This document shows, piece by piece, positions 8,212 through 37,857 of a stretch of DNA of 37,857 nt. The translations under genes and the position numbers were made by a program. The stretch's first letter is position 1. Each line of letters begins with the position of its first letter. The DNA lies in NCBI GenBank assembly GCA_038058815.1, contig JBBUAH010000008.1, positions 1 to 37,857 on the forward strand. The letters are read 5' to 3'. The notes under the pieces are model-generated. The model was given only the letters and a program-made list of their open reading frames with translations. It made no database searches and was not told the origin of the DNA. The stretch is from Patescibacteria group bacterium. GTDB taxonomy: Bacteria; Patescibacteriota; Minisyncoccia; Phycocordibacterales; PALSA-1337.

Positions 8212-8313
8212 ATATTTTGTTTAATTAATTAATAATGTAGATATCATACAAAAGCGAAATGAAGACAAAATAAAATTTTTGACACTTTTTCACCATTCCA
8301 CAATATTTCTAGT

Positions 8314-8342: not shown

Positions 8343-8393
8343 CTTTCTTTCTAGGTTTTTTAATTAATTTTTTAGGATTTTTTATTAAAGCAA

Positions 8394-8546
8394 TTATTTT
8401 AATAATTTTTGTAATGCTGATAACTCTTCATTACTTAGATTTGAACTATATTTACTCACAAGGAACAGAATACTGAAGCTGACACTTAGAATGAGAGCAA
8501 AGCCTATAACGAATTTGAAGAAAGATTGATCAAAGGGATTTATCAT
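8394..8546 (-). CDS. candidate 50-codon membrane micro-ORF (below the ORF-track length cutoff)
   Basis: Hand translation gives MINPFDQSFFKFVIGFALILSVSFSILFLVSKYSSNLSNEELSALQKLLK*. The ATG is 3 nt after the giant gene's TAA. There is one hydrophobic helix. It lies upstream of the 8314-8342 terminator, so it would be co-transcribed. Confidence 0.25.
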   Translation of the reverse strand: MINPFDQSFFKFVIGFALILSVSFSILFLVSKYSSNLSNEELSALQKLLK

Positions 8547-8547
8547 T

Positions 8548-9020
8548 TTTTATTTAACGAATTCATTCAACTTCGCCCTAGTCTTCGGTCCTACTAGACC
8601 ATATCCCCCATCACCTTCCTTTGCTATACCATATTTTACTTGGAATTTCTGAATGGCTCTTTCTGTAAGAGAACCAAAGTAATTGGTTTCATTTCCAAGG
8701 GAACCAACTCCCGTCTCTGAGATTCGTGTTTCTGAATCTTTATTTAAGATTTTCTGAAGTGAAATAACATCGTCACCAGAAACACCTTTTGATAATAGTT
8801 TTGTAAATATTACAGAGGTTGTAGGAGTAATAACTGGAGTAGTTGGAGTAGGAATTTTTGGTTGTGCCGTTCCAGTAATCTTAGAAACTTCTTGAAGTTT
8901 TGCTCTTGTTTGTGGGCCTACCCTACCTACTTGCGATATTCCGTATTTTGCTTGGAATCTTTTTACAGCTCTTTCTGTAGCAGGACCAAAATACCCCGTC
9001 ACTAAACCTTCTGGATATAT
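8548..9020. repeat. 473-bp perfect direct repeat, copy A (3' end of the giant gene)
   Basis: Base-by-base comparison with 15790-16262 shows identity across the whole span (offset 7242 bp). Identity stops abruptly at 9021 versus 16263 and at 8547 versus 15789. Confidence 0.95.
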
Positions 9021-12000: not shown

Positions 12001-15000
12001 AAGACATCTACTTGTTCAGTAGCTGTAAATGTACTAGAATCAGCTCCAACTTTTACTAAGAAAGTTAATGCATTAGCAGATGTTTCCAGTAGAGAGAAAT
12101 TTTTTATTATAGCATTTGTTGAAGTAGCTCTAATTGGAGTTGGCATTGGTTCACCAAAATACACATTACTAGTTGCTCCATTATTTTTCTTTGTTGGTGC
12201 TACTGAAGGATCAGTACTAATAAAGAATTCGCTTCCAGCTCCACCTCCATAAGCACCAGCTGTGGAATTCATACCTACAGCTAGATTTGTAAATGAATAT
12301 GTACCATCAGCCTCAACTGTTGTAGTATCAACCGCCCCAGTCTGAGGTGACATCAAGTGAATTGTTACACCTCCAAGAGTCTGGCCATCCGTAGAATCAG
12401 TGACTGTACCACGAATCGTTGTAGTTGCACCCCCTCCAGCATTACCTCCACCTATATAAATAGGATTTGCATTAAATGATTCTAATAAAGTACCATTGGA
12501 TGATTTTGATTTTATATCTAAAGAATATCCGGAAGAATCAGGACCTTTCGGTATTGAAGGATTTACTATATCTGCAATTGAGAATTTTAGAAAATCATGA
12601 GTATCTGTATTTCCATTAAACAATTCTGATCTTGTGGCAGTATCTAAAGTAATAGTAACAGTTTTCGTTGTTGAATCTTTTACTATTGAAGAAATCCCCA
12701 CTGTACCAGGACCAGGACCATTTATATCTCTATTTTGAGTTGCAACAAAAGTATTTCTAGAACTTGTTGTCGCTGCACAACATAGTCCGAAATCAGATGT
12801 TGAAGGGAAAGTAATAACTATCGTTCCTCCTGCTGGAATTTGCGTAGCTATTGGTAATTCAAAGGTATATGTACTTGAAGCATTTACGGCTGAACTTGAA
12901 GGTCTTATTTGTACTGGCGGCATAAATCCTATTCCTGAAGCACTAAAATCTCTCTGCTCTCCAAAGGTACTTCCAGAAAATGAACCCGGACCTACAAAAC
13001 CCATACCTCCCATACTTCCTGATCCGGCAGACATAATATTTCCTCTAAAAACACTTGATGTCATAGTGTTACCTGATAAATCTTTTATATTGGTAGTTGT
13101 AGCTGTAAATGGACCAGGAGCAAGACGAAGTCCAGTAAGTTTAGCAGTTTTTGTTGAAGAATCATAAGTAAGTGATTGACCAGATAAGGCACTTAATGTT
13201 TGGGGAGATCCTCCTGCTGTTAAAGCATAATTTGAAATATTTGTAGCATCAGTAGAATTAACAGCTTCATTAAATGTAATAGCCAATTCAAATTCATTTC
13301 CGTTTGCAAACATAATCGAGGATGGAGTAGTATCAGTATTTGAAGATTCTATAGTCCAGTCTTTAGTTATATCAGTACCTAAAAGTACACCTGCCACATT
13401 TGCGATTGTTGCTCCAATAAGAGTAAGTCTTATAGATTGTCCTACAGGTAAAACATTTGAAGGTGTAAAATGTCCTTCTTTTGAAACTGGATCATATCTT
13501 ACTGAACCTGGAAGATTTATTCCACCAGAAACTGTAGCTAATGTGACTGAACTTGTAGTTACTGTACTTGGATCTAAAGCATCATCAAAAGTAAACATAA
13601 AATCATTTGTTGGAGCAGAGATAGTAGTTCCAGGAGTTGGGAATATTCCGACTAATGCAGGAGCTGTAGTATCACCAGCTGAACTACCAGTAGTAAATCG
13701 GGAAGTATATGCAGAAGGTAAAGGTATACCACTTCCAGTTCTATTTTTTACACCCACACCAACAGTTAATGTATAAGTAGTATTTGCCGACAAGGTAGCT
13801 GGGGTAATAGATAATATATTTTTTCCAGTAGATGTGCTAAATGAGAAATTAGAAAGAGATATACTAGATCCACCAACTAAAGTTATGTTAGAAGCTGTGA
13901 ATGTGGAAGTATCCATATCCATCTGATTAAATTCGATTGAAATTTTAGCAAGATTTTTGGGAACATTTATACTTCCAGGAAATGGACTAGTACCTATAAT
14001 AGTAGGTGGAATTGTACTTGTAAATGTTTGTCCAGCAGCACCAGTTGTAGAAGTTGCATAATAATTTTGATTTCCAGCTGTAAATGAATCTTGATCAAGA
14101 GCACTGGCTCCTGCACCACCAAGATCAGTTACTCCACTTGTAACCATAAACACATAAGAGGTAGAGGGCAATAAGGATGCAGCTAAATTACATTTTGCTG
14201 GTGGTTCCATATTTCCAGCCATTTGATTATAAGTAACTGTTATACAAAGATTTGAACCAATTGCTGTACCATTCTCAACTTTTTTGAAAGTTACAGTTGA
14301 AGCAGTAACGGTTGTAGGGTCAACAGGTTTATTAAATCCAAAACCAATATATTTTAAATCTACGGGTACATTAGTCATTCCAGGACCTGGATATGAACCC
14401 ATAACCCTAAGAGCATTAGAACCCATATCTCCTCCACCCCCTCCTCCAGAAAAAGCAAATTCCTTAGTACTTAAACTATTTTGCGGATCAGGAATTGTTC
14501 TTAAATAGAAATTTGCACTATTATCTCCACTATCCCAACCATTTCCTTTCATCGAGTCCTCACCTCCAACTGCCATCTTAGTGGAATTTGAAGTAGTTGA
14601 AGCATATCGCTCTAAACTTTTACCATCACTTATCAAAGCTGTAGCACATGTACCTCCCTCACAATTTCCAGCTGGCTGACTACCCCACCCTATATAATCA
14701 ACAGAAGTAGATGTGGCAGTATTAACACCAAGAGAAGATGAGGTAGTAGCTATAGATACTCCACCATTTACCTTAATAACATCAAATGAACTTGTAGCAA
14801 ATACTGCATCAGGCTGTATACTACCCCCATTAAAACCGTTTTGAGAAGCTATAAGAAAAAAGCCTTGAGGAGGTATAACTTTCTTGAAATATGTAATTCC
14901 TACTGGTGTCGAACTTCCATTCGAATAAAATGTATGCAAACTTATAGGTGTTTGAGAAAGATCAATAGGCACTTCTCCAGAATTATAAAGCTCAACAAAT

Positions 15001-15620
15001 TCATCAGCTGAATTTGTGGCTGTGCCAACCTTTACTTCACTTATTTTTACTAATGCTGTTTTAGACAATCTTATTACTTTAGAAGAAACAAAAGATAATC
15101 CAAGTCCTCCAGCAGTAGTACTAGCATAATTTGCATCTGCTGTAATATGAAAAGCATGACCATTTGTAATTCCAGAATTTGATGTAGTAGTAGCAACTAT
15201 ATAAAACTGTGTATTATTGCCTATATCAGCACCCCCAGTCGGCGTAAGAGTGATTAAATTTCCTGCTCCCACAGAAAAACTCGTTGCGACCGCTCCACTT
15301 ACGAAGGTATCTTCATCTATTTGAAATCCTGGATTTGTACCCGATTCTTTCCAAAGAGAGACTCTTGAAATTTCAGAAGCAGTAAGACCATCTTGATCTC
15401 CAATTAGATAAAATCCAACCTTAGTAAGCTTGTCCGAACCAGAATTCTGATTAAGCATGAATTGTGCCAATGGCAAAATAGATCCTCCACCAGCAGATAC
15501 AAATGGAGCATAAACTCCATCAATGATTGGACCTTGTAACGTAATAGCTGCATTTGCAAGAGTAGAAATCGAAAACGTGCCAATAACAAAGAAGAAAGCG
15601 ATAACAATTTTCTTTTTCAT
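8550..15620 (-). CDS. giant (2356 aa) secreted, wall-anchored multidomain surface protein
   Basis: Signal peptide MKKKIVIAFFFVIGTFSISTLANA. Lamin-tail-domain signature KISEVKVGTATNSADEFVELYNSGEVPIDLS (domain ~14487-15056). At least 3 SbsA-Ig-like units (e.g. GTSPFPGSINVPKNLAKISIEFNQMDMDTSTFTASNITL). At least 6 CarboxypepD_reg-like units (e.g. IRGTVTDSTDGQTLGGVTIHLMS...DGTYSFTNL). One FN3 (ITMAWTASSGG..TGYYIYRD...TTYYYKVGAY). Two C-terminal PG_binding_1-like domains (GDDIRALQTIL....GYFGPATERAVKRFQ; GDDVISLQKIL...NYFGSLTERAIQKFQ). Confidence 0.93.
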   Translation of the reverse strand: MKKKIVIAFFFVIGTFSISTLANAAITLQGPIIDGVYAPFVSAGGGSILPLAQFMLNQNSGSDKLTKVGFYLIGDQDGLTASEISRVSLWKESGTNPGFQIDEDTFVSGAVATSFSVGAGNLITLTPTGGADIGNNTQFYIVATTTSNSGITNGHAFHITADANYASTTAGGLGLSFVSSKVIRLSKTALVKISEVKVGTATNSADEFVELYNSGEVPIDLSQTPISLHTFYSNGSSTPVGITYFKKVIPPQGFFLIASQNGFNGGSIQPDAVFATSSFDVIKVNGGVSIATTSSSLGVNTATSTSVDYIGWGSQPAGNCEGGTCATALISDGKSLERYASTTSNSTKMAVGGEDSMKGNGWDSGDNSANFYLRTIPDPQNSLSTKEFAFSGGGGGGDMGSNALRVMGSYPGPGMTNVPVDLKYIGFGFNKPVDPTTVTASTVTFKKVENGTAIGSNLCITVTYNQMAGNMEPPAKCNLAASLLPSTSYVFMVTSGVTDLGGAGASALDQDSFTAGNQNYYATSTTGAAGQTFTSTIPPTIIGTSPFPGSINVPKNLAKISIEFNQMDMDTSTFTASNITLVGGSSISLSNFSFSTSTGKNILSITPATLSANTTYTLTVGVGVKNRTGSGIPLPSAYTSRFTTGSSAGDTTAPALVGIFPTPGTTISAPTNDFMFTFDDALDPSTVTTSSVTLATVSGGINLPGSVRYDPVSKEGHFTPSNVLPVGQSIRLTLIGATIANVAGVLLGTDITKDWTIESSNTDTTPSSIMFANGNEFELAITFNEAVNSTDATNISNYALTAGGSPQTLSALSGQSLTYDSSTKTAKLTGLRLAPGPFTATTTNIKDLSGNTMTSSVFRGNIMSAGSGSMGGMGFVGPGSFSGSTFGEQRDFSASGIGFMPPVQIRPSSSAVNASSTYTFELPIATQIPAGGTIVITFPSTSDFGLCCAATTSSRNTFVATQNRDINGPGPGTVGISSIVKDSTTKTVTITLDTATRSELFNGNTDTHDFLKFSIADIVNPSIPKGPDSSGYSLDIKSKSSNGTLLESFNANPIYIGGGNAGGGATTTIRGTVTDSTDGQTLGGVTIHLMSPQTGAVDTTTVEADGTYSFTNLAVGMNSTAGAYGGGAGSEFFISTDPSVAPTKKNNGATSNVYFGEPMPTPIRATSTNAIIKNFSLLETSANALTFLVKVGADSSTFTATEQVDVFAGGPGKFMVQTVTPGAGTISSGSTFATLYIPKINGQWGIGIGPAMPKGGGGMMGPPPSTDWASPKPVSLMISGCPTACNATVNGASASSYTFTISKANKTIAGILQDASGNAISGAEVYAYSPTGGTGNRSQTSASGSFSIKVAAGSYSVGAFSPGMGQSKEVSVVMASDGQYYVNGSATAASATTFILKMTKPGYTITGKITDGTNPVSASVFAYRTDSPGGVNAMSDLSTGNYTLYVDNGTWKVNSFIPGFGPMTEQTVTVSSANQTGIDFAPSTGNTMTILSGKIYEDIDGSNGYNTGDTAISGAVVRLSGTGGKMNEGVSDSDGNYSIRVIGSSYNISDIFHPTYNRIAPIGDNGTAIGSIDLSTASTTKNIKVPPRKTVNIFVKDSSGSALTVSKAFIDLFDPAKNAGIHTEITNASTTILQVPNGITPNVRVYIQGVPQSNVSIAGLNGSTVVTNGTFTVDGTENIVVTVNTTANAMSTIIGRVTASGDAVGESWISFIDTTNDVHVGTQATSTGWYNITLANGTYQVMANKPGYVGTPVSITVSGSATQNLTLTQSNLTISGTVTAGGSAAKDSFVRAEKVGGGHAIAKTDTSGAYTINVTSGKWRIFAAAEGYAEGKWSSGINDLVDTTSSSQTGINITLSTTASIQSKLATSNTFTDTSASTFSDSTVGVSVQLDGNTLGTAGDTSYLTAKETTNIPQTDSVNIIGNKAKDISAYSGDSQVKNLQSGKTATVELSYTKAELTAESMTSTSTINNLKVYSYSDDKQEWESLSTVPTYKDTDGNAIATADIATSLSNVASVSFSAVGTHFSAYALADPRGVEPPGTPTGVSATGGSAGSGQITMAWTASSGGTSATGYYIYRDTSASGSFALLANAGNVTSYTDTTPTAGTTYYYKVGAYASGGDLESAASSVANASVAAATSVSSGGRIRIPVITPIVTTSVQTTIPSLTIPEKALLTSIKRDLGKGMNGDDIRALQTILSKDKSIYPEGLVTGYFGPATERAVKRFQAKYGISQVGRVGPQTRAKLQEVSKITGTAQPKIPTPTTPVITPTTSVIFTKLLSKGVSGDDVISLQKILNKDSETRISETGVGSLGNETNYFGSLTERAIQKFQVKYGIAKEGDGGYGLVGPKTRAKLNEFVK

Positions 15621-15789: not shown

Positions 15790-16262
15790 TTTTATTTAAC
15801 GAATTCATTCAACTTCGCCCTAGTCTTCGGTCCTACTAGACCATATCCCCCATCACCTTCCTTTGCTATACCATATTTTACTTGGAATTTCTGAATGGCT
15901 CTTTCTGTAAGAGAACCAAAGTAATTGGTTTCATTTCCAAGGGAACCAACTCCCGTCTCTGAGATTCGTGTTTCTGAATCTTTATTTAAGATTTTCTGAA
16001 GTGAAATAACATCGTCACCAGAAACACCTTTTGATAATAGTTTTGTAAATATTACAGAGGTTGTAGGAGTAATAACTGGAGTAGTTGGAGTAGGAATTTT
16101 TGGTTGTGCCGTTCCAGTAATCTTAGAAACTTCTTGAAGTTTTGCTCTTGTTTGTGGGCCTACCCTACCTACTTGCGATATTCCGTATTTTGCTTGGAAT
16201 CTTTTTACAGCTCTTTCTGTAGCAGGACCAAAATACCCCGTCACTAAACCTTCTGGATATAT
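15790..16262. repeat. 473-bp perfect direct repeat, copy B (3' end of the 367-aa gene)
   Basis: Identical to 8548-9020. It encodes the same 156 C-terminal residues (SIYPEGLVTGYFGPATERAVKRFQ...GPKTRAKLNEFVK). Confidence 0.95.
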
Positions 16263-16895
16263 TGAACTATCTTGAGCTAGAAATTGCTGAAGTTTCTCCA
16301 CATCAGCTCCTTGGCTACCACGGGATAGGTCATTAGTAAGGACAACATTGGAAATTGCACCTGTGACTTTGGGTGTACAAACCACTCCTGCAGGACAGCC
16401 GGGTACGACAGCTGGAGTTGGAGTTACTGGAGGGAGTAAAACAACTACCGGTGGAGGTGATCCTCCACCACCACTGCTACTTCTTCCTCCTCCAGATGTA
16501 TTTGTACTAGATGTTACAGTACATGTTGTGGCAGAAGGTATGACTTTTACTGTTCGTGTTGAACCTGATTGAATTGTGATAGTTAATGTATTACTAGCTG
16601 ATGTACATTCTTGAGAATAATCGTTACCTCCTATCCCAGACACTGCCATAACATACTTATCAGCAGACGTCACTATCATCGTTGAACTGGTAAGCATTGT
16701 GGCAACAAAATCCGTGGAATTAACTACAATCGATTCTATAAGTGCTGATGAACCACTTACTGTTAATGTTTTTCCATCAACAGTCAAAACTGTATCGGTT
16801 GTTAAAGTCACATCATTATAGGCTGCATTAGTAATGGCCAGTGGTACCAATACCGAGAGAATTATTGCGCCAATACTTAATTGGTATTTAGGCAT
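15792..16895 (-). CDS. secreted protein with tandem C-terminal peptidoglycan-binding domains
   Basis: 367 aa with signal peptide MPKYQLSIGAIILSVLVPLAITNA, a Thr/Ser-rich beta-type N-domain and a Gly/Pro linker (SSSGGGGSPPPVVVLLPPVTPTP). It ends with two PG_binding_1-like domains, the last ~156 aa being identical to the giant protein. Confidence 0.88.
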   Translation of the reverse strand: MPKYQLSIGAIILSVLVPLAITNAAYNDVTLTTDTVLTVDGKTLTVSGSSALIESIVVNSTDFVATMLTSSTMIVTSADKYVMAVSGIGGNDYSQECTSASNTLTITIQSGSTRTVKVIPSATTCTVTSSTNTSGGGRSSSGGGGSPPPVVVLLPPVTPTPAVVPGCPAGVVCTPKVTGAISNVVLTNDLSRGSQGADVEKLQQFLAQDSSIYPEGLVTGYFGPATERAVKRFQAKYGISQVGRVGPQTRAKLQEVSKITGTAQPKIPTPTTPVITPTTSVIFTKLLSKGVSGDDVISLQKILNKDSETRISETGVGSLGNETNYFGSLTERAIQKFQVKYGIAKEGDGGYGLVGPKTRAKLNEFVK

Positions 16896-17690: not shown

Positions 17691-19583
17691 TTAAGGGAAT
17701 GAAACGCCTGTTGTTCTCCAATCCAATTCTGAACCCATAAATGTCAGAGCATACACAGAGTTTGACTGTATACTTTCAAGTCCAATGGCATATGAACCAG
17801 AAGTGAATGCAGCTGATGCACTACGACCCATAATTGTGAATGTAACAGGAATATCAACCGTAGTACCTTCAGGTATTGTGAATGTATTGCTTGTCACAGT
17901 ATACCCGGAAGGAGCAGAGAAGTCTGTTGAAGTTGCATAAGAACTCAATGCCAAATCAACTACACTGTTTCTGTATATTTTGAAACCAGTTGATGAAGAA
18001 GCAAACATTGGTGTGTTTGAAGCTAATGTACCAAGATCAATAGCCCCACCAACTGCTTTTACTGTAACTACGAAGGTAGCAGTCAAAGTCGATGTACTAA
18101 CATTTGTTGATACACCATTATTTTGAGGTGCTCCAGCTGTTACAATACTCTTTGATTTTAGTTTAGCCTCCAATCCAACATTTCTTATTCCAAAACGATT
18201 ACCAGTAGCGGTACCACTTACAGTAACACTATCTTTAATAGAGTTTACAGCAGTAATATCAGAAATAGCAGCAATAGCAGTTGTTTCATTTGCTACTGTA
18301 CCATTTGCACTAGTGATATCAAGTTTTACAGTAAGAGTCTTAATAGTTCCCTTAGGAATAGTGATAATTCCATTAGTATCTGTAATAGCTGCTACACCAG
18401 TGGAGGTATTTACAGAAGCATTACCTATTTCTGTTGAACCATCGAAAAGGTAAGCTGTAGAAGAAGTAGCTGCTCCTGTTCCTGTCTTAGAAACAGTTAC
18501 GTTTACTGTAGTAAGTGTTACATTGTCTTTTTCAGCTTTTACATCAAAGATCAGTGTAGGTAACTTATCTAATTGATCTTCACTCGATCCATTTGCAGCG
18601 ATAACATCTTGTCTAATTGGGGTTGAAGGATTAAGAGATACAGTCAAAGTAGCTGATTCAGTAAGAGTAGGATCAATATTTTGAGCTCGTGTAATATCTG
18701 TAGCAGCAGAAGGAGTATATTGATCAATACCAGCTCCATCTACACCACGAATACCACTAGCAGCGAATCTAATAGTAAAGGTTTCAGTGTCAATTTCAGT
18801 AGTATCAATTGATGGTCTAACATCAACCTTGATAGTAAGAACTTTTGTTGCATCTTTTGGAATCACATAATTCATTCCACTAAGAGTAATATAATATCTA
18901 CTCCCATCAAGTATAGCTGTAGTTGAATTCAAATTAGAAGAAGCCAAAACTGTACCTGCCTCATCTGTTACATAAATCTTTGAATAGATTTTGTTCCAGA
19001 TAGTAGTAGCAGTTCCTAAGTCCAATTTAACTCTTTCTATTCTAACATCAGAAGACTTTGCTGTAACTTTTGCGCCAAGAACTGGGACCATAGTATCACC
19101 TTCATAAACAACAGAAGGCAAACCTGCATTTGTCTGTACTGATGTAATTGAACCTTCAACTCCTGGAGTCGTTATAACTCCTGGTGTTCCTGTTGCAACT
19201 GTCGCAGGAGTCGTTCCTGGATTAGCTGTACATGTATATCCTGTTGGACATACAAATCCAGCTGGAGCAACTGCTACTCCACCACCACCATTTACTATAG
19301 CTCTTGTAAGAGGACCGAAGTATCCGAATGATGGAAGATTCACTGTCTTCTGATAAGCTGCAACAGCTGCCTTTGTTTGTGAACCAAAGTAGCCTTTTGT
19401 TGCTACACCAGAACTAAGAGCTGGTATATCAAAACCCTTACTCATAAGCCATGTCTGTAGAGCAGTTACATCTACTCCTGTACTTCCAACTGTAAGGTTG
19501 GAATCGAATGCTGCATTTACAGAAGCTGCTCCTACGAGAGCGACTGTCAAAGCAACAACACTTGCGATTATATATTTCTTCAT
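17691..19583 (-). CDS. secreted wall-associated protein: N-terminal PG-binding domain plus Ig-like/S-layer-like beta repeats
   Basis: 630 aa with signal peptide MKKYIIASVVALTVALVGAASVNA. PG_binding_1-like region GVDVTALQTWLMSKGF....GYFGSQTKAAVAAYQ. This is followed by a Cys-containing linker and a long Thr/Val/Ser-rich repeat-like beta sequence. Confidence 0.88.
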   Translation of the reverse strand: MKKYIIASVVALTVALVGAASVNAAFDSNLTVGSTGVDVTALQTWLMSKGFDIPALSSGVATKGYFGSQTKAAVAAYQKTVNLPSFGYFGPLTRAIVNGGGGVAVAPAGFVCPTGYTCTANPGTTPATVATGTPGVITTPGVEGSITSVQTNAGLPSVVYEGDTMVPVLGAKVTAKSSDVRIERVKLDLGTATTIWNKIYSKIYVTDEAGTVLASSNLNSTTAILDGSRYYITLSGMNYVIPKDATKVLTIKVDVRPSIDTTEIDTETFTIRFAASGIRGVDGAGIDQYTPSAATDITRAQNIDPTLTESATLTVSLNPSTPIRQDVIAANGSSEDQLDKLPTLIFDVKAEKDNVTLTTVNVTVSKTGTGAATSSTAYLFDGSTEIGNASVNTSTGVAAITDTNGIITIPKGTIKTLTVKLDITSANGTVANETTAIAAISDITAVNSIKDSVTVSGTATGNRFGIRNVGLEAKLKSKSIVTAGAPQNNGVSTNVSTSTLTATFVVTVKAVGGAIDLGTLASNTPMFASSSTGFKIYRNSVVDLALSSYATSTDFSAPSGYTVTSNTFTIPEGTTVDIPVTFTIMGRSASAAFTSGSYAIGLESIQSNSVYALTFMGSELDWRTTGVSFP

Positions 19584-27492: not shown

Positions 27493-28929
27493 CTATTTCC
27501 TCAAAAACAAAGGATTTTCTACTTTTCCAGCTTTTATGGCATTTAAAATCTTCATCGAAGTCTCTGGTAATATAGGTTCCAATGCTTTGGCAATATGATA
27601 AATACTAGCAAGTAAGAAAGAGATTTGCTCTTTGCCTTTTTTCTCATCTATTTTAATAGTCTTGAACGGCTGATTTTCTTGAATAAATTTATCCGTAGCT
27701 TGAATCCTATTCCAAATATCATCGCAGACTTTATTTATTTCGAATTTTGCGTAAAATTCTTCATGTTTCTTATGGTCAAGATTGGGAGCAGATTTTTCAT
27801 CAAGAGACACATTATTTACCTCTGCCATCTTCATCACTCTACTTACAAGATTACCAAGTCCATTTGCTAAATGTGCATTATATGCCTCTTTAAACATTTC
27901 CATAGTGAAAGGGCTGTCTTCGAATGGATGTATTTCGCGTAGGACATAATAGCGTAAAGCATCAGTTCCATATTCTTTTACAATATCTATTGGATTTATT
28001 ACATTACCCAGTGATTTACTCATTTTTATACCACCTTCACCAGTCACGAATCCATCGATCACTATTTGACGAGAGTTTGGTAAATCTACTGACATAAGTA
28101 TGGCTTGCCACATTGCTGATTGTTGGCGAAGATTATCTTTTCCACAATATTGAACGACATTTTCTGAATCAATCCACCATTTCTTAAATTTCTTCATATC
28201 ATGAGGCCAGCCGACCGCTGAAATATAATTTGTAAGTGCATCAAACCATACATACATGACATGCTCTGAATCATCGGGTACCTCTATTCCCCAAGACATT
28301 TTACTCTTAAGACGAGATATACTGAAATCTTGCAAGCCTCTTTCAACAAATGCCTTTATTTCATTGAATCTAAAAGAAGGGACAACAAAATCTGGATTCT
28401 TAGCATAAAGATCAAGAAGTGACTTCTGGAATTCAGAAAATTTGAAGAAATAATTTTCTTCATCGATTTCTTCTATATTCATAAGTAGATGTATTGGACA
28501 TTTGCCATCAGTAAGCTCGCCATCAGTCTTCTCCAATTCACAACCTATGCAATATTTTATTTTATAGTTTTTCTTATATATGAATCCACGTTCTTTACAG
28601 ATTTTCCATAGAGCTTGAGTCGACTTTATATGATTCTTATCTGTAGTTCTAATAAAATTAATATCAGATGAAATACCAAGGAGTGGCAATAATTTCTTAA
28701 ACTTTCCTGCATTACCATCGACATACTTTTTAACATCAATGCCCAAGGCGAGAGCATTACGCTCTATTTTTGACCCATGTTCATCTGTTCCAGTATTGAA
28801 AAACACTCCATATCCAGAAAGTCTCTTCGCCCTGGCGATCACATCTGCACGGATTATTTCCATAGCGAAACCCACATGTGGATCAGCATTTACATAGGGC
28901 AATGTTGTGGTTATATAGAAATTTTTCAT
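27493..28929 (-). CDS. metG: methionyl-tRNA synthetase (short form, no C-terminal tRNA-binding extension)
   Basis: 478 aa with LPYVNADPHVGFAME (the HIGH position reads HVGF), a knuckle CIGCE...GKCPIH, WFDALTNY and KMSKS (IKMSKSLGN). Confidence 0.93.
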   Translation of the reverse strand: MKNFYITTTLPYVNADPHVGFAMEIIRADVIARAKRLSGYGVFFNTGTDEHGSKIERNALALGIDVKKYVDGNAGKFKKLLPLLGISSDINFIRTTDKNHIKSTQALWKICKERGFIYKKNYKIKYCIGCELEKTDGELTDGKCPIHLLMNIEEIDEENYFFKFSEFQKSLLDLYAKNPDFVVPSFRFNEIKAFVERGLQDFSISRLKSKMSWGIEVPDDSEHVMYVWFDALTNYISAVGWPHDMKKFKKWWIDSENVVQYCGKDNLRQQSAMWQAILMSVDLPNSRQIVIDGFVTGEGGIKMSKSLGNVINPIDIVKEYGTDALRYYVLREIHPFEDSPFTMEMFKEAYNAHLANGLGNLVSRVMKMAEVNNVSLDEKSAPNLDHKKHEEFYAKFEINKVCDDIWNRIQATDKFIQENQPFKTIKIDEKKGKEQISFLLASIYHIAKALEPILPETSMKILNAIKAGKVENPLFLRK

Positions 28930-28932
28930 TCT

Positions 28933-30207
28933 TTAATCTTTAAATGTAAGAATTTTCTCAATTTGATCTTTATCCTTATACGGACCAATTATAGCTAAAT
29001 TCAGCCCTTCGTCCACAAAGATTTTCTTTGCAATATCTTTCACTTCCTTTACAGTGACTTTCTGTATTTTCTTTATTTCTCCTTGTGGAGAATTGATTTT
29101 ACCCTTTAATATTTGATTTATGGCAAAATATTCGGCGCGGGAGTCCGATGTCTCAAGTCCAAGCAAGAAAGAACCGCATATATAATCCTTAACCTTTTTC
29201 ATTTCATCATTATTTATTGGATCATTTATTATTTTTTTGCATTCTGATAAAAGCACTTTTATGACTTCTTCAATCCTTTTCGTATCTATACCAGCTGAAA
29301 TAGAGAAAAGTCCATGATCAGTATAAGCATCATGATTGGCACGAATATAGTATCCGACACCCATCTCTTCACGTAATTTCTGGAAAAGCCTGCTACTCAT
29401 ACCACTTCCAAGAAGTGTGGAAAGTACGGCTAGAGTATGATCATATTTACTATTAGCACTAAACGATCTCATACCCAAGACTAGATGTGCTTGATCTGTT
29501 TCTTTAAATTTAACAAGTACCTTCGGCCTTGTTTGCTCTTCTTTTACCGCTATCTTCTTCGTCTTATTCCCCACTGATATATCTTTGAAAATCTTTTCAA
29601 TCTTTTTTATTATAGTCTTTTCATTGAATGAACCAGAGATTATGACTGTAGTAGCATCCACCACATAATGCTCCTTTCTATATTTAATAAAATGATTTTG
29701 ATTAAAGCTTTTCACATTCTCTTCGCTACCAGCAATATTCCACCCCGCCGGCTGATCTCCATATACAAGATTCATAAAAAGATCATGTATATGTCTCTGT
29801 GGCATATCTTGATACATTCTTATCTCTTCCACTATCACCCCCTTTTCTTTTTCGATTTCAGAGCTATCTAATAAAGAATTTAGATAAATATCAGAGACAA
29901 CATCAAGCGCCGTATCTAAATGCTTCGGATTTACCTTGGCATAATATCCTGTATATTCTTGAGAAGTAAAAGCATTGTATTGAGCTCCAATTGAATCTAG
30001 TTCTTTGGAAATATCTATGGACTTCGGTCTTTTCTTAGTTCCCTTAAAAACCATATGCTCTAGGAAATGCGATAGACCATTTATCTCCTTTGTCTCATAT
30101 TTCGAACCAGTTTCCACCATAACAAGAACCGTGACTGCGGGATTATCAGTCATAGGTATTGTGATTACTTTTAATCCATTTTTTAGTATTGTTTTTTTGA
30201 ATTTCAT
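28933..30207 (-). CDS. M16-family (insulinase/pitrilysin-like) zinc peptidase
   Basis: 424 aa with the inverted zinc motif HFLEHMVFKGT (HxxEH) and a downstream Glu-containing region EKGVIVEEI. Confidence 0.9.
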   Translation of the reverse strand: MKFKKTILKNGLKVITIPMTDNPAVTVLVMVETGSKYETKEINGLSHFLEHMVFKGTKKRPKSIDISKELDSIGAQYNAFTSQEYTGYYAKVNPKHLDTALDVVSDIYLNSLLDSSEIEKEKGVIVEEIRMYQDMPQRHIHDLFMNLVYGDQPAGWNIAGSEENVKSFNQNHFIKYRKEHYVVDATTVIISGSFNEKTIIKKIEKIFKDISVGNKTKKIAVKEEQTRPKVLVKFKETDQAHLVLGMRSFSANSKYDHTLAVLSTLLGSGMSSRLFQKLREEMGVGYYIRANHDAYTDHGLFSISAGIDTKRIEEVIKVLLSECKKIINDPINNDEMKKVKDYICGSFLLGLETSDSRAEYFAINQILKGKINSPQGEIKKIQKVTVKEVKDIAKKIFVDEGLNLAIIGPYKDKDQIEKILTFKD

Positions 30208-31526
30208 CAGAAAACTTTCTCTTTTATGTGTTTAATCAATTCTTCTATTCCAACCCTCTCCTGCTTCCCTGTATCTCTATCACGCACCGTCACTCCTGCA
30301 TTTTTTTCTATAGTATCGAAGTCCACCGTGACACATATAGGTGTTCCGATCTCATCTTGTCTTCTATATCTTTTTCCTATATTTCCATTATCGTCAAATG
30401 CCACCCCTGAAATTTCTTTTTTCAGCATTTTATATATTTCGCGAGCTTTTTCAACCAAAGCTGGTTTATTCTTCAATAATGGAAAAACTGCCACTTTTAT
30501 CGGTGCCATTTTTGGTGAGAATTTCAGATAAACTCTTTTCTCTCCATCTATTTCATCTTCGGTATATGCATCAGAGAGTACGGCTAAGACAGTTCTCTCG
30601 ACTCCGAATGAAGGCTCTATACAATGTGGAATAAATCTTTCTTTACTCTCTTCATCATAATAAGAAAGGTCAACTTTACTTACTTCTGAATGTTGCCTAA
30701 GATCAAAGTCGGTTCTATAAGCTAATCCATAAAGCTCATCTTTACCAAAAGGAAAATCGAATTCAAAGTCAATTGTCTTTTTCGAATAATGTGCCCTTTC
30801 ACCATCAGGAACTTCCAATTCATGAATATGTTTAGGATTTATTCCAATATCTTTTATAAATCCATGAATTTCATTTTTAAAGCTTTCAAAAGTCTCTTTC
30901 CAGCTTTTAGAATCTACAAAATATTCAATCTCCATCTGCTCAAATTCTCTAGTACGAAAGATAAAGTCTCGGGGAGAGATTTCATTTCGAAAGGCCTTAC
31001 CTATCTGTGCAAGTCCAAATGGTAATTTCGGATGAAAGCTGTCAAGAACATTTTTAAAATTTACAAACATACCTTGTGCTGTTTCTGGTCTAAGATATGA
31101 AATAGAATCCTCGTTTTCTATAGGACCGACATTTGTTTTAAACATCATATTGAATTGTCTGGACTCACCGAGCCCGCCTTCACAATCTGGACATTTTGAT
31201 GGATCTTCTATCTGATCAGCACGGAAACGATGATTACACTTTTTACATTGAACGAGTGGATCGGAAAAGCCAGAAACATGCCCGCTCGCCTTCCATACAT
31301 TCTGATTCATTAAGATCGAAGCATCTACTTTATACATATCGTCACGATTTTCTACAAACCTTTTCCACCAGAGTTGTTTTATATTATCTTTCAAGACCAC
31401 GCCGAGAGAACCGAAATCCCATGTACCCGAAAGTCCACCGTATATTTCCGATCCTTGAAATATGAATCCTCGCCTTTTGCATAGCGATATGATTTTCTCC
31501 ATTTTATTTTCTTCTTTTATTGCCAT
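30207..31526 (-). CDS. glyQS: glycyl-tRNA synthetase (alpha2 homodimeric type)
   Basis: 439 aa with RRGFIFQGSEIYGGLSGTWDFGSLG, RPETAQG, GLAQIGKAFRNEISPR, FEQMEIEYF and PHCIEPSFGVERTVLAVL. The stop overlaps the start of the M16 gene by 1 nt. Confidence 0.94.
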   Translation of the reverse strand: MAIKEENKMEKIISLCKRRGFIFQGSEIYGGLSGTWDFGSLGVVLKDNIKQLWWKRFVENRDDMYKVDASILMNQNVWKASGHVSGFSDPLVQCKKCNHRFRADQIEDPSKCPDCEGGLGESRQFNMMFKTNVGPIENEDSISYLRPETAQGMFVNFKNVLDSFHPKLPFGLAQIGKAFRNEISPRDFIFRTREFEQMEIEYFVDSKSWKETFESFKNEIHGFIKDIGINPKHIHELEVPDGERAHYSKKTIDFEFDFPFGKDELYGLAYRTDFDLRQHSEVSKVDLSYYDEESKERFIPHCIEPSFGVERTVLAVLSDAYTEDEIDGEKRVYLKFSPKMAPIKVAVFPLLKNKPALVEKAREIYKMLKKEISGVAFDDNGNIGKRYRRQDEIGTPICVTVDFDTIEKNAGVTVRDRDTGKQERVGIEELIKHIKEKVF

Positions 31527-33490: not shown

Positions 33491-34048
33491 TCATAGTTGG
33501 CTTTCTTTGAGAGCTGTATTTATAACCCTGATAATCTTACTCTTATTCTCATTCATATTCTTGATTATGTCCTCATTGATAGAATTATTCTCTAGGAAAA
33601 TATTTAATTTCTCTGTATTTCTTATATACCCCAGAGTGCTCAATATTCTCAAAACCGTCAAACATTCCACACTATTATAATCTTTCTCTTTTATATCAGC
33701 TTTATACAAAGTCTCTATTATTTCAAATAGCTTTTCATTTTTTTCTTCTCCATGAAGTAATCTCTTTAATAATTTGAGAATTTTAATGTGTAAAATATTT
33801 GGTTTTACTTTATTTTCAATTTCATGTGCACCTGTCAATCTCCATACCTCCTTTCCCCTGACTATGGAAATATTTGTATAGTCAAAATCTTGAATATGAT
33901 AACGAAGTTTGGATTTATTGAGTCGTATTCCCTGTGCCAAGGCCCCTATCATACCGAAATTCTCTGTAAATATAAGTAGGAATTTCCCAGATTCACCATG
34001 TGGAGTACTGGATATTATAAATGCGGAAGTTGTGTATATATGATGCAT
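33491..34048 (-). CDS. recO: DNA repair protein RecO (short form)
   Basis: 185 aa. The N-terminal OB-fold pattern (AFIISSTPHGESGKFLLIFTENFGMIGALAQGIRLNKSKLRYHIQDFDY..ISIVRGKEVWRLTGA) is typical of RecO. The C-terminal half is shorter than in E. coli RecO. Confidence 0.75.
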   Translation of the reverse strand: MHHIYTTSAFIISSTPHGESGKFLLIFTENFGMIGALAQGIRLNKSKLRYHIQDFDYTNISIVRGKEVWRLTGAHEIENKVKPNILHIKILKLLKRLLHGEEKNEKLFEIIETLYKADIKEKDYNSVECLTVLRILSTLGYIRNTEKLNIFLENNSINEDIIKNMNENKSKIIRVINTALKESQL

Positions 34049-34117: not shown

Positions 34118-34145
34118 TTGACAAAAAATGTGGTTATGCTAGGAT
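34118..34145 (+). promoter_or_regulatory. candidate sigma70-type promoter of the orphan RNA
   Basis: Perfect TTGACA (34118-34123), a 16-nt spacer, then TAGGAT (34140-34145). The GC-rich block starts 4 nt later at GGGG (34149). Confidence 0.55.
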
Positions 34146-34148
34146 ATA

Positions 34149-34398
34149 GGGGTCGATGGGCTCGGGCGTTTATGTGGAGAAAGTCCCCCCCTATCGGCCT
34201 CCTCCGTTTGTCTTAAGCAGACGGAGAGCTCAGCGAGATGGTTTCCTAGGCTTTGGTCCAGTGTGTCAACGAGGGACAGTATGCACCTCGCTACGACATT
34301 CCACGCCAGACCTCAATTCACCCGTTGTGGGGGATTGCCTTGAGCGAGGAAAGGGCCATCTCACCCAGTCGCACGCTTAGGCGGGGCTGGGTTTTCTT
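34149..34398 (+). ncRNA. GC-rich structured RNA of unassigned family (possible strongly reduced RNase P RNA; alternatives are 6S-like or novel)
   Basis: Hand count gives ~59% GC over 34151-34390, within AT-rich flanks. It has a promoter upstream and a terminator at its 3' end. Internal helices: CTCC..GGAG hairpin 34202-34226; GGTCCAGTGTG (34255-34265) with CACGCCAGACC (34302-34312); long-range GAGATGGTTTCC (34235-34246) with GGAAAGGGCCATCTC (34348-34362). GGAGAAAGTCC (34176-34186) resembles RNase P CR-I, with a possible P4-like pairing AAGTCCCCC/GGGGGATT (34329-34336). Confidence 0.8.
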
Positions 34399-34401
34399 TT
34401 T
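34364..34401 (+). terminator. intrinsic terminator of the orphan RNA, overlapping the ileS stop codon
   Basis: CCCAG(T)CGC...GCG(GGG)CTGGG stem followed by TTTTCTTTTT (34392-34401). The ileS TAA is the rc of 34400-34402. Confidence 0.6.
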
Positions 34402-37400
34402 ACACCAAATCCATTTTCACTGAAAAATCCCCAATCTTCATCGATTCACCTTCTATATTTTTATAAACAATTTCTTTTAATAAAGTACTACTTATAATCA
34501 TATTTTCATTTTCCTTTATTAAATTCTTCACACCCTCATCACCATCTATTGCAAGTACTGCTCTATCCTGTATTGTTAAACCTTTTGATTTCCTCAAATC
34601 TTGCACAGCGCGGACTAATTCTCGAATTATTCCCTCTTCTTTTAATTCTGGGGTAATAGAAATGTCTAAAAGTACCTCTTCAGAAAGAGTTGTATCAGAA
34701 ACTATTTCCTTTACATTTATTTCATCTCTTACAAGATTAATCAAATTATCTGAAATGATAGCTTTTATAGTGAGTTTAGAGAGTGGTTGACGGACATTTA
34801 TCTTCGCCTTCATACGAGCTTCTAGACCTAGAGATGCTATCTTTCTCACTTCTTTCATGGATTCTATTATCTTTTTATCAAATTTCTTAATCTCTGGCCA
34901 TGCTTCCATATGAACACTTTCCTTAGGACCTTTCAATCTAAGATATATATCTTCTGCAAGAAATGGCATAAAAGGTGCTAATAATTTTATTAGGGTAATA
35001 AGTACTGTATGAGTAGTAGATAATGCCATTTTTCTATCATTCTGATCTTCACCCTTAAAGCGGTCTCTAGATCGCCTTAAATACCAAGTAGAAAGATCAT
35101 CAATAAAATCAGCAAGAGGCCATGAAGCACGATCAATTTCATATTTTTCTAGACTCTCTGTTACATTTTTTATAAGTTCTGCAAGCCTGGCTAGTATCCA
35201 AATATCAAGTGGATGATTACCAGAAACATTTTCCATACCAGAAATAGCATACATTTCATAAAATGTAACAACATTATTCAAACGACCAATATGTTTCTTC
35301 ACAACTTCATCTACACCCTTTTCGGAAAAGGCGAAGTCTTGAGCGTGTACTACAGGAGATGACATTAGATAATATCGCAATGCATCAGCTCCATACTTAT
35401 CTACGATATTCATAAGATCTGGATAATTTTTCTTCGACTTAGACATTTTCTGACCATCTTCAGCAAGAAGAAGACCATTGACCACTACATTTCTAAAAGG
35501 AGATTTTCCGAAAAGTCCCACGCCCAAAACAAGCATAGAATAAAACCATCCCCTAGTCTGATCTAGTCCTTCTGCGATGAAGTCTGCAGGATAGCCTTTC
35601 GTTCTTCCAAGAATTTTACTGAAAGGACCCGGCTTTGGATTGAAATCACATTTACTGAATGGATAATGAGATTCGCCAAAAGGCATAGAACCAGATTCAA
35701 ACCAACAATCGAAAACTTCAGAAACCCTATTTAATCTATTCCCTTTTTCATCTGTAAGCTTTATATCATCGATAAAAGGATGATGCAGATCAGCTTCATA
35801 TTCATCATTGTGAGGTAATGGATGGAAATCGAGCTTGGATGGTTTAGCATTCTGATTATAATGATCAGTATTCCCACGAAGAGATATTGATTGTTCCCTA
35901 TTTAGACCTTGCGCTACAGAATTCAATAAGAAAAGTGGAGTATCATGAGAAATTATGAGAATGTTTTTACCTTCATATTTATTCTCAATATCATAAAGAA
36001 AATCCCCTACACGCTTCTTTATATCTACATAATTCTCACCTCCTTCTGATGTCTTTATAAATCTATCTGCATGATTGAATTCTTTTACAAAATCGAGGAA
36101 TGGTTTATTATTCCAGACTCCGGCACCAAGCTCGCGTAATCTAGAATCAATAATAATTTCTGATGTATTAAGATCGATAACCTTGGCGATAACTTCTGCT
36201 GTTTCTCTCGTACGAATAAATGGGGAAACGAAAATAAGGTCGATTTTCTTATCTTTCAACCATTTTCCTGCTTCTTCTGCTTGTTTTTTCCCTTTCTCCG
36301 TTAAATAGTGGGAATTTTCTGCTATGGAACTGATAATCATCAAAGTATTGTTTTCTGCTTCTCCATGACGTGTAATATAAAATGTATTTTTTGCATGGCT
36401 ATATTTTCTGAGGTCTGCAATTGAAGAAAGAACGATAGATTCGTGATTTTCTTCATTTCTCCAAACCGGAAGAGGTGCACCCCAGAAACGAGATCTAGAA
36501 ATAGCCCAATCCCGAGCTCCCGAAAGCCAATCCCCGAATCTTCCTTCACCTATTTCAGGCGGAATCCATTTTATTTTTTTATTTTCTTTTATAAGTTTAT
36601 CGCGAATAGCAGTAACTTTTACAAACCAAGAAGATGTAGCATAGTTTAGAAGTGGAGTATCACATCTCCAACAATGTGGATATGAATGGATTATTTTTTC
36701 TTTTGAAAAAAGAGTATTATGATGCGCCAAATATTTTATTATCTCTATATCGGCTCTTTGATGTACATCTTTTTCATTTTCGGTCGATTTCGGCTTTACT
36801 TGTTGCCCCGCAAAATCAGTAACTTCTGATTTGAATACACCATTCATAGTGACATGCTGCGCGAAAGGTAAATTGTATTTTAATGAAAGATCATAATCAT
36901 CAGCACCGAAAGCAGGAGCAATATGAACAATTCCGGTACCATCTTCTATAGTTACGAAATCCGCACCATAAACCCTCCAACCGTTTTCATAATTCTTTAA
37001 ATTTTTATCATTTGAATAATATGTAAAGACTGGTTCATATGGTTTTCCTATTAAACTTTTTCCATCAAATTCTTCTAAGACTTTATACTCTGTTTTAATA
37101 ACTGACAGCCTTGATTGGGCTAAAATTAACTTTATATTTTCTGTTTCAATTTTTACATATTTTATTGAAGGATTTATTGCAAGAGCTGTATTCCCCGGCA
37201 GTGTCCATGGCGTAGTCGTCCAAGCTAGAAAATATGTATTTAGCTCATCTATAAGTTTGAATTTTACTGTTACGGAAATATCTGTAATATCTTTATAGCC
37301 TTGACTGACTTCGAAGTTTGAAAGTGTCGTCTCACATCGAGGACAGAGATTCATAGACTTGAATCCTTCGTAGATAAGACCTTTCTTATGGAGTTCAGCA

Positions 37401-37857
37401 AATGCCCACCATACAGATTCTGTGTATGTGGTGTCCATTGTCCTATAATCATTATCCATATCTGCCCATCTTCCGAGTCTAGGAATAATCTTTCTCCAAA
37501 CATCCGCATATCGCATCACACTATCCTTTGCAGCGGAATTGAATTTTCCTATTCCATAATCGATTATATCTTTCTTTGAAGTCAGTTTTAATTCTTTTTC
37601 CATAAGATTTTCTACAGGCAAACCATGGCAATCCCATCCCCAACGACGTCGCACATGATATCCTTGCATGGTCTTATAACGAGGAATAATATCTTTTATA
37701 GTACCCGGTATAACATGCCCATAATGTGGCTCACCCGTAGCAAATGGTGGACCATCATAAAATACAAATTCACCCTTTGGCGAAGGCTGTTCTAATGTCT
37801 TTTTGAAAATATTATTCTTTTCCCAAAAAGCTAGTATTTTCTCTTCGGTTTCAGATA
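34400..37857 (-). CDS. ileS: isoleucyl-tRNA synthetase (type 2/eukaryote-like), N-terminus truncated by the window edge, carrying an internal histidine-phosphatase domain
   Basis: The frame stays open upstream of the first Met (37669) to the window end: ...EKILAFWEKNNIFKKTLEQPSPKGEFVFYDGPPFATGEPHYGHV (HIGH). The CP1 editing motif TTTPWTLPGNTA, plus WAISRSRFWGAPLPVW, DCWFESGSMPF and KMSKS (GQKMSKSKKN), are all present. Confidence 0.95.
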   Translation of the reverse strand, partial: SETEEKILAFWEKNNIFKKTLEQPSPKGEFVFYDGPPFATGEPHYGHVIPGTIKDIIPRYKTMQGYHVRRRWGWDCHGLPVENLMEKELKLTSKKDIIDYGIGKFNSAAKDSVMRYADVWRKIIPRLGRWADMDNDYRTMDTTYTESVWWAFAELHKKGLIYEGFKSMNLCPRCETTLSNFEVSQGYKDITDISVTVKFKLIDELNTYFLAWTTTPWTLPGNTALAINPSIKYVKIETENIKLILAQSRLSVIKTEYKVLEEFDGKSLIGKPYEPVFTYYSNDKNLKNYENGWRVYGADFVTIEDGTGIVHIAPAFGADDYDLSLKYNLPFAQHVTMNGVFKSEVTDFAGQQVKPKSTENEKDVHQRADIEIIKYLAHHNTLFSKEKIIHSYPHCWRCDTPLLNYATSSWFVKVTAIRDKLIKENKKIKWIPPEIGEGRFGDWLSGARDWAISRSRFWGAPLPVWRNEENHESIVLSSIADLRKYSHAKNTFYITRHGEAENNTLMIISSIAENSHYLTEKGKKQAEEAGKWLKDKKIDLIFVSPFIRTRETAEVIAKVIDLNTSEIIIDSRLRELGAGVWNNKPFLDFVKEFNHADRFIKTSEGGENYVDIKKRVGDFLYDIENKYEGKNILIISHDTPLFLLNSVAQGLNREQSISLRGNTDHYNQNAKPSKLDFHPLPHNDEYEADLHHPFIDDIKLTDEKGNRLNRVSEVFDCWFESGSMPFGESHYPFSKCDFNPKPGPFSKILGRTKGYPADFIAEGLDQTRGWFYSMLVLGVGLFGKSPFRNVVVNGLLLAEDGQKMSKSKKNYPDLMNIVDKYGADALRYYLMSSPVVHAQDFAFSEKGVDEVVKKHIGRLNNVVTFYEMYAISGMENVSGNHPLDIWILARLAELIKNVTESLEKYEIDRASWPLADFIDDLSTWYLRRSRDRFKGEDQNDRKMALSTTHTVLITLIKLLAPFMPFLAEDIYLRLKGPKESVHMEAWPEIKKFDKKIIESMKEVRKIASLGLEARMKAKINVRQPLSKLTIKAIISDNLINLVRDEINVKEIVSDTTLSEEVLLDISITPELKEEGIIRELVRAVQDLRKSKGLTIQDRAVLAIDGDEGVKNLIKENENMIISSTLLKEIVYKNIEGESMKIGDFSVKMDLV
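35825..36391 (-). other. histidine phosphatase (phosphoglycerate-mutase-like) domain embedded in ileS
   Basis: Residues ~427-615, counted from Met at 37669: FYITRHGEAENN, LTEKGKKQAEEAGKWL, LIFVSPFIRTRETAEVI, LRELGAGVWNN, ILIISHDTPL. These are all the signature motifs of the His_Phos_1 family. Confidence 0.8.

Follow-up and report, generated by a model that had tools for sequence, protein, structure and literature searches.

Aminoacyl-tRNA synthetases are among the best-studied enzymes, and those of class Ia are known for the connective peptide 1 (CP1) editing domain, a whole hydrolytic domain that sits within a connective peptide of the Rossmann fold and gives the chain two active sites. Editing domains aside, a second complete catalytic domain nested in the catalytic body of a synthetase is, to our knowledge, very unusual. 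The present analysis concerns such an arrangement in the isoleucyl-tRNA synthetase (IleRS) gene, ileS, at the end of a 37,857-nucleotide (nt) stretch from a Patescibacteria group bacterium (GenBank assembly GCA_038058815.1, contig JBBUAH010000008.1, positions 1 to 37,857; the whole stretch is hereafter called the window), where a branch-1 histidine phosphatase domain (HP) is embedded in the synthetase. Whereas CP1 is universal and ancient and acts on the mischarged product of its own enzyme, the HP is lineage-specific, comes from a neighbouring gene and has an unrelated fold with phosphoryl-transfer chemistry.

The synthetase part has its closest described counterparts in type-2 IleRS, the bacterial forms of which are eukaryote-like and mupirocin-resistant. 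Priestia megaterium IleRS2 (8c8u/8c9d) and yeast IleRS (8wnd) have the same full domain set as the window protein (phmmer E 5.5e-220), comprising the Rossmann fold with HIGH and KMSKS, the CP core, CP1, CP2, CP3, the anticodon-binding domain and DUF5915. At the tip of CP3, however, IleRS2 has ~5 residues where the window protein has a second enzyme domain of 192 amino acids (aa). Likewise, PhoE (1h2e/1ebb), the H. thermophilus phosphoserine phosphatase PspA (4ij6), the alpha-ribazole phosphatase CobC (6e4b) and HFP (9mmh) of the riboflavin pathway resemble the HP in size (~190-210 aa), in fold and in the R-H...R...E...H set at 19-25% identity, while the HP differs in being nested in, or located next to, class I synthetase genes. 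A CobC/PhoE-like phosphatase is also joined to a nucleic-acid enzyme in the RNase H/acid phosphatase of the M. tuberculosis Rv2228c type (NF005567); there the phosphatase is attached terminally to RNase H, in contrast to the internal nesting in a synthetase found here, and the phosphatase half of the model matches the insert at 75 bits, far under the 326 that the family requires. An IleRS with an extra catalytic domain has a precedent in NF040702 (ileS_w_GNAT), which scores the GNAT-less window protein at 333 bits against a cutoff of 1999.

An initial reading of this DNA, made from the letters alone (the sequence-only reading), had taken the architecture to be undescribed. No description of a synthetase with a nested histidine phosphatase was found by full-text searches of the literature, which agrees with that view; the architecture is nevertheless not rare, and both of its Pfam matches are precomputed publicly. 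Both parts belong to known families, and public databases hold hundreds of such sequences under generic names such as 'class I tRNA ligase family protein' or, for fragments, 'histidine phosphatase family protein', and the architecture is therefore hidden in annotation. What is new is the colinearity of the insert with a neighbour gene of argS and ileS, the occurrence of other sites and copy numbers in IleRS, and the existence of valyl-tRNA synthetase (ValRS), arginyl-tRNA synthetase (ArgRS) and TsaC partners.

The nested phosphatase of the window protein

The visible ileS frame is numbered here from position 37855, and its stop codon occupies 34400-34402 (open reading frame (ORF) list and translation). 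The listed ORF runs from the first ATG (34400..37669, minus strand), and Met 37669 had been adopted as the start in the sequence-only reading. The frame, however, stays open for 62 further codons up to the window edge and includes HYGH, the HIGH motif, upstream of this Met; Met 37669 is therefore not the start and the gene is cut by the window end. Alignment with homologues suggests that ~16 more N-terminal residues may be missing. The same protein is deposited at NCBI as MEK7213676.1 under the name 'class I tRNA ligase family protein, partial'.

The same reading had seen ordinary IleRS flanks on a continuous frame, and this is borne out, the ORF being open throughout, the HIGH, editing and KMSKS motifs being located and the TIGR00392 ileS equivalog model scoring 886.6 bits against a cutoff of 621.4 (NCBIfam). 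The editing-domain segment W212-N222 is invariant among 77 homologues. The best Protein Data Bank matches are IleRS2 8c8u and yeast IleRS, above the type-1 enzymes 8c9e/1ffy. Furthermore, the full-length AlphaFold2 (AF2) model (mean predicted local distance difference test score (pLDDT) of 84.8; 91-97 over the insert) superposes on IleRS2 and yeast IleRS with a TMt of 0.76-0.82, 8c9d/8c8u (0.76-0.77) being at the top. From the lack of a second ileS in any fetched locus and the strong conservation of the core, we infer that isoleucine-specific aminoacylation is probably kept despite the insert.

In Pfam, the tRNA-synt_1 match of the window protein is broken in two around a His_Phos_1 match (PF00300; E 5.9e-31, 108.1 bits vs a cutoff of 21.7, profile positions 2-167 of 194), and Anticodon_1 and DUF5915 follow. 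This is the family that had been expected for a complete phosphatase domain of ~190 extra residues at 35825-36391 (aa 489-677); the segment, when excised, matches His_Phos_1 on its own (E 2.6e-32) and falls inside the true insert, while the catalytic residues of all four signatures, previously read as intact, align on the profile. The span from WG to WFESG, rightly noted as enlarged, measures 265 residues as compared to ~68 in insert-less relatives. In the alignment to P. megaterium IleRS2 (8c8u), query residues 2-486 correspond to 12-478 and 686-1122 to 484-920; because of the gap between these two blocks, ~199 query residues stand for ~5 in 8c8u. The junctions of the insert read YS/HAKN and LDF/HPLP (the slash marking the junction). 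Native CP3 sequence restarts directly past the insert at PLPHN..DLHHPFIDD, and the DLH(K/R)xxID stretch after the site is also present in insert-less relatives.

Within the catalytic body, the insert occupies a surface loop at the tip of the connective-peptide subdomain CP3. The proposal of an internal insertion into a loop of the Rossmann fold thus holds as far as nesting, as opposed to terminal fusion, is concerned, whereas the site itself belongs to CP3 and not to the Rossmann core proper. The nomenclature of CP3 follows that of yeast and Candida IleRS, in which YWG of the CP2-3 linker marks the start of CP3; the topology of CP3 varies among the Candida, T. thermophilus and S. aureus enzymes.

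Structure prediction, which had been proposed as a check, gives a confident fold for the HP domain modelled alone (pLDDT 91.6, predicted template modelling score 0.89). A Foldseek search with this model retrieved PspA 4ij6, PhoE 1h2e, HFP 9mmh, CobC 6e4b, TIGAR and Rv2419c at template modelling scores of 0.74-0.80 (~0.78 for the nearest) and the low identities given above, and the best 50 structural neighbours are small-molecule enzymes throughout. Of these fold neighbours, CobC and HFP have 5'-phosphoribosyl or ribityl compounds as substrates.

Conservation of the insertion in related Patescibacteria had likewise been suggested for checking, and it is extensive. PF00300 lies inside IleRS in every one of the 120 nearest clusters at 90% identity (1099-1281 aa, 60-100% identical), and the HP is nested in IleRS at 68 of 80 independent metagenome loci, which had been retrieved by the phosphatase part only. 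A 299-aa junction query is covered in full, at 42-73% identity, by at least 80 GTDB species representatives; these include Taylorbacteria, Lloydbacteria, Nomurabacteria, Paceibacterota and Parcubacteria as well as one single-cell genome. Since the same junctions recur in more than 100 independent assemblies, long-read contigs and the single-cell genome among them, an assembly chimera is ruled out. A split-gene reading was also rejected: P0022 is one of several pieces of ileS on a 733-kb contig, for which frameshift errors are the simplest cause, and many '180-aa' or '655-aa' proteins merely start at a Met before RHG in 5'-truncated genes.

Across the HP copies found with an insert hidden Markov model (HMM) in all fetched proteins, the seven-residue signature R-H-G-N-R-E-H is exact in 337 of 394; most of the remainder are fragments or differ by conservative replacements (A or S for G, D for E, various residues at N503). 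R496, H497 and G498 are kept in essentially all 394 copies, and the only common substitution at E575 across the HP family is Asp. Invariant or nearly invariant positions in the two alignments (77 and 195 homologues) are R496, H497, G498, N503, S544, R548, T549, T552, E575, E607, R615, K630 and H637. The mean pairwise identity of the insert (0.53) is below that of the anticodon-binding domain (0.64) and above that of the C-terminal domain (0.455). Because this identity is in the range of normal domains and the catalytic residues are kept, the insert is regarded as a working domain and not a relic. Thus, it is virtually certain that the nested architecture is real and folded, and the HP domain is predicted with good confidence to be an active phosphatase.

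The window lineage lacks the zinc-knuckle cysteines of CP3, unlike many other nested forms. The HP was considered as a substitute for the zinc knuckle and rejected as such: the CxxC...CxC pattern still flanks the insert in many nested IleRS, and the cysteines are gone in only some nested lineages.

Features of the window protein and its conserved neighbour (residues numbered in the visible ileS frame)
Feature	Residues	Positions	Strand	Basis or remark
ileS, type-2 isoleucyl-tRNA synthetase		34400..37857	minus	5'-truncated by window end; 1151 codons visible
HIGH signature (HYGH)	44-47	37715..37726	minus	motif read
CP1 editing domain	~186-395	36671..37300	minus	matches IleRS editing-domain chains 1wk8/1ue0
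TTPWTLP editing motif	214-220	37196-37216	minus	
CP3 N-terminal flank, WGAPLPVW...SIADLRKYS	458-486	36398..36484	minus	
WGAPLPVW	458-465		minus	
Nested branch-1 histidine phosphatase domain (192 aa)	487-678	35822..36397	minus	Pfam, AF2, colinear homologues
His_Phos_1 (PF00300) match	493-657	35885-36379	minus	Pfam
RHGE	496-499	36370-36359	minus	
R496-H497-G498, phosphate-binding Arg and nucleophilic His	496-498	36362..36370	minus	invariant in 77 + 195 homologues
R548, second phosphate-binding Arg, in FIRTRET (aa 546-552)	548	36212..36214	minus	invariant
E575, general acid, in LRELG (aa 573-577)	575	36131..36133	minus	invariant in 77 homologues
H637, second active-site His, in ISHDT (aa 635-639)	637	35945..35947	minus	invariant
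CP3 C-terminal flank and Rossmann re-entry, PLPHNDEYEADLHHPFIDD...DCWFESG	679-722	35690..35821	minus	
DCWFESG	716-722		minus	
KMSKS signature	803-807	35435..35449	minus	
Anticodon_1 and DUF5915 type-2 C-terminal domain	884-1027 and 978-1150	34406..35206	minus	Pfam
recO, conserved downstream neighbour		33491..34048	minus	synteny argS-[HP]-ileS-recO

The free-standing gene, further insertion sites and other partners

The nearest free-standing HP proteins (~189 aa) are 36-49% identical to the insert and align with it from their own second or third residue through the last, i.e., the two are colinear end to end. In all 18 readable cases (7 of 7 look-ups and 11 of 11 metagenome loci), the free-standing gene, which belongs to sister Patescibacteria lineages, is located between argS and an ileS devoid of the insert. 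It lies 2-61 nt from ileS and at times overlaps argS; one or two small genes intervene in two cases, and the loci usually continue with recO. The nested type keeps this order as argS-ileS::HP-recO, and the window does likewise. Free-standing HP genes occur beside two IleRS clades that share only 51% and 35-38% identity with the window protein. No relics of a free-standing HP were detected in the argS-ileS gaps of nested-type loci, even by a relaxed HMM search; these gaps contain unrelated small ORFs. The neighbour-joining trees built for the HP domain and for IleRS are noisy; in them, IleRS of the free-standing type (L082 and L086) branch among those of the nested type, which hints that transitions between the nested and free states may have been repeated, a point that is not relied upon here. 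Downstream of one free-standing HP gene (L088, 2774-4741), the insert-less IleRS has HYAT (PHYATLLP) in place of HIGH, which may relate to the departures from HIGH known in some type-2 IleRS.

Wider architectures were surveyed among the best 150 of 12,120 insert matches (E<1e-3) in a library of 50%-identity representatives. Within IleRS, the HP is also found at another CP3 position, past the second pair of cysteines (P0292), in the stretch from WFESG to KMSKS (P0272, P0292), and past KMSKS but before the anticodon-binding domain (P0272, P0349, P0313, P0386, and P0389, the last of which is labelled Gracilibacteria). Two tandem copies occur in CP3 of P0363 and P0381, while P0264 has four tandem copies. 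The double-insert cluster P0272 comprises six proteins, which come from separate assemblies with contigs of up to 1.06 Mb. A further oddity is P0322 (JGI, 1066 aa, 11.3-kb contig), an IleRS that contains the HP in CP3 (aa 678-866), a Y1 transposase domain of the IS200-like type at aa 340-461, which lies between the editing-domain TPW motif (aa 225) and WGxP of CP3 (aa 646), and, past WFxSG, a GNAT acetyltransferase domain (aa 935-1063). This protein thereby combines HP with the kind of extra domain covered by NF040702; being the single member of its cluster, it could be real or could reflect an oddity of assembly or gene calling.

Apart from IleRS, three partner enzymes were recognised. In ValRS (P0333 and the full-length, 1140-aa P0509), the HP sits directly past the WFSSG...GWP segment; in ArgRS (P0372, locus L160), it is fused at the C-terminal Met; and in P0288 it forms the C-terminus of the L-threonylcarbamoyladenylate synthase TsaC (TIGR00057, 146.8 vs a cutoff of 123.2). 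All recognisable partners among the long proteins of this survey are tRNA-linked and convert ATP to an acyl-adenylate and pyrophosphate (PPi), while two short HP-only entries (P0275, P0387) are without an identified partner. The sole ValRS::HP locus seen (L169; GCA_964396295.1, CAYNEQ010000001.1, 14.3 kb) encodes the 1140-aa ValRS at 8001-11423, with the HP nested before KMSKS and a further ~95-aa segment in the CP3 region; tyrS follows, pgk, eno and two iPGM genes precede, and neither argS nor ileS is nearby.

Proposed function of the phosphatase and rival explanations

Assignment of the HP to a named subfamily was attempted and failed in each case. The glycolytic phosphoglycerate mutase models score under their cutoffs (dPGM_arch, NF038349, 86.8 bits vs 225; pgm_1, TIGR01258, 24 vs 81.7) and the ValRS::HP genome has two iPGM genes beside pgk and eno, for which reasons a dPGM role is unlikely. 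CobC (TIGR03162, 77.6 bits vs 162.9), PspA (NF045917, 66.8 vs 350) and the phosphohistidine phosphatase SixA (TIGR00249, 48.1 vs 74.5) were rejected as well. An intein was discarded, since Pfam has no Hint or intein family in the protein, the residues at the junctions are wrong for splicing and the insert is a whole histidine phosphatase fold. As for a role in anti-phage defence, neither the insert nor the whole protein has a match in PADLOC-DB; free-standing P0028 has one weak match (E 4.6e-4), probably by chance.

The best explanation overall, which is preferred by a modest degree of confidence, is that of a bifunctional enzyme, in which one polypeptide would combine a normal type-2 IleRS with an independently folding phosphatase module. 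Judging by the chemistry of the family, H497 would attack the terminal phosphoryl group bound by R496, R548 and H637, E575 would protonate the leaving group, and the phospho-histidine intermediate would then be hydrolysed. Gene order, repeated fusions and the set of partners argue, on balance, for a functional coupling of the HP to adenylate-forming tRNA enzymes. As these partners make acyl-adenylate and PPi from ATP and later release AMP, the HP may clear a by-product or ligand that they share and that bears phosphate; the leading candidate is PPi or an AMP-type nucleotide, and hydrolysis of PPi would pull the activation step forward. This choice of substrate is tentative. Equally speculative is the proposal that the HP constitutes a class of accessory enzyme for the adenylate-forming tRNA enzymes of Patescibacteria (IleRS, ValRS, ArgRS and TsaC), serving possibly as a stand-in pyrophosphatase, in the clearing of nucleotide by-products, or in the clean-up of substrates or tRNA ends.

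Several points weigh against such a coupled, adenylate-linked role. The specificity of the HP cannot be read from its sequence, all NCBIfam subfamily models (dPGM_arch, CobC, PspA and SixA) lying far under their cutoffs, and we know of no branch-1 histidine phosphatase that acts as a pyrophosphatase. Since PPi diffuses freely, tethering brings no obvious kinetic gain. The insertion sites are differing surface loops, not all of them close to the active site, and the ValRS and TsaC fusions amount to one 2-member cluster and one singleton. Because the HP gene adjoins ileS and argS, the IleRS and ArgRS fusions could have arisen by local rearrangement without any coupling. Moreover, tRNA is shared by the partners as substrate or pathway, which may leave room for an activity directed at tRNA.

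The point on adjacency is the core of the rival that deserves most attention, viz., that of a hitch-hiking housekeeping phosphatase (acting, for example, on a sugar phosphate, phosphoserine or a cofactor intermediate), which was captured by its neighbours in streamlined genomes and for which fusion means co-expression only. The HP gene adjoins argS and ileS in every free-standing case, which would make local rearrangement sufficient for the fusions with these two; its fold neighbours are metabolic phosphatases, its insertion sites are variable loops such as CP3, and the domain shows no basic charge bias. What this account explains poorly is the retention of the adjacency beside two very divergent IleRS clades, the use of several distinct in-frame sites with 2-4 tandem copies within IleRS, and the fusions to ValRS and TsaC, the ValRS case of L169 having no argS or ileS nearby. 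Nor would it predict that the recognisable partners among the long proteins of the best 150 matches are all adenylate-forming tRNA enzymes, with the proviso that P0275 and P0387 show no partner. Hitch-hiking is accordingly considered possible, though rather doubtful. End-healing of tRNA, in which the HP would strip a 3'/2'-terminal phosphate, or the product of a cyclic-phosphate or pyrophosphate lesion, from the acceptor end so that damaged or toxin-modified tRNA could be recharged by the HP-bearing enzyme, is unlikely. It draws on the fact that every partner is tRNA-linked, the t6A enzyme TsaC included, and that a terminal ribose phosphate is a phosphomonoester resembling the nucleotide substrates of PhoE-like enzymes; in addition, the linker just before CP3 belongs to the pocket for the tRNA CCA end in yeast IleRS, according to published structure work. 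The product of TsaC, however, is threonylcarbamoyl-AMP, and tRNA binding in the t6A pathway is not its task; moreover, the post-KMSKS site, at the start of the anticodon-binding domain, is unlikely to reach the acceptor end. The HP lacks the charge signature of RNA binding (median pI ~7), its fold neighbours are small-molecule enzymes, and the negative PADLOC result for both insert and whole protein also speaks against healing.

A built-in protein phosphatase, reversing an inhibitory phosphorylation of the synthetase by, e.g., HipA-like kinases, has some appeal, as the histidine phosphatase superfamily includes the protein phosphatases SixA, PGAM5 and Sts-1, the KMSKS-type loop is a target of HipA-like kinase toxins in other class I synthetases, and some of the insertion sites flank the KMSKS loop. 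Yet no SixA, PGAM5 or Sts chain is present among the best 50 structural neighbours, the SixA model remains under its cutoff with only the N-terminal half matched, and both the free-standing form and the TsaC fusion fit poorly, which makes this explanation very improbable. Lower still stands the possibility of a non-catalytic insert or an artefact, be it a chimera, a decaying relic or a structural spacer. The oddity of the architecture is all that would suggest it, together with the fragmentary nature of some database entries (e.g., P0022); against it are the junctions recurring in independent assemblies, the near-universal retention of the catalytic residues, the confidently predicted HP fold (AF2), and the lack of an intein/Hint domain in Pfam with junction residues unfit for protein splicing. 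An artefact or inert spacer is, thus, hardly credible.

Surroundings in the window and wider meaning

Between the ileS stop (34400) and the recO start (34048), a GC-rich island is located at 34128-34396 (~0.46, the flanks having ~0.33). The plus strand of the island, which is antisense to ileS and recO, folds at -110 kcal/mol (z -2.78, with 1 of 200 shuffles equal), as compared to a z of -0.99 for the minus strand, and the island may be a structured RNA. Its GGAGAAAGUCC segment resembles the CR-I motif of RNase P. The island contains no tRNA or tmRNA, has no Rfam match at E<=1 except for one that is weak and probably due to chance, and is not conserved in the fetched loci.

Two other synthetase genes lie close to ileS on the minus strand, namely metG (27493-28929, 478 aa) and, at 30207-31526, a 439-aa class II enzyme whose anticodon domain is of the HGTP type, neither of which carries an extra domain; the order ileS-recO-DUF11-class II synthetase recurs in related loci. 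The minus strand also bears, at 1-950, the 5' part of a 23S rRNA gene (LSU_rRNA_bacteria, 656 bits, model 1-856), which is cut by the window start, and, at 8550-15620, an ORF of 2356 aa with Big_5, CarboxypepD_reg, fn3, LTD and peptidoglycan-binding domains that looks like a giant surface protein. The ORFs at 15792-16895 and 17691-19583 also carry PG_binding_1.

The HP is conserved inside IleRS over a large part of Patescibacteria, its history is traceable to a neighbouring gene, and it recurs at other IleRS sites and in fusions to ValRS, ArgRS and TsaC. This pattern points to an unrecognised biochemical need, tied to the activation of amino acids or adenylates, in these reduced, host-dependent bacteria. 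If the HP does constitute a class of accessory enzyme, CP3 and the nearby loops of class Ia synthetases would be sites for the recruitment of a second activity, as CP1 once was for editing.

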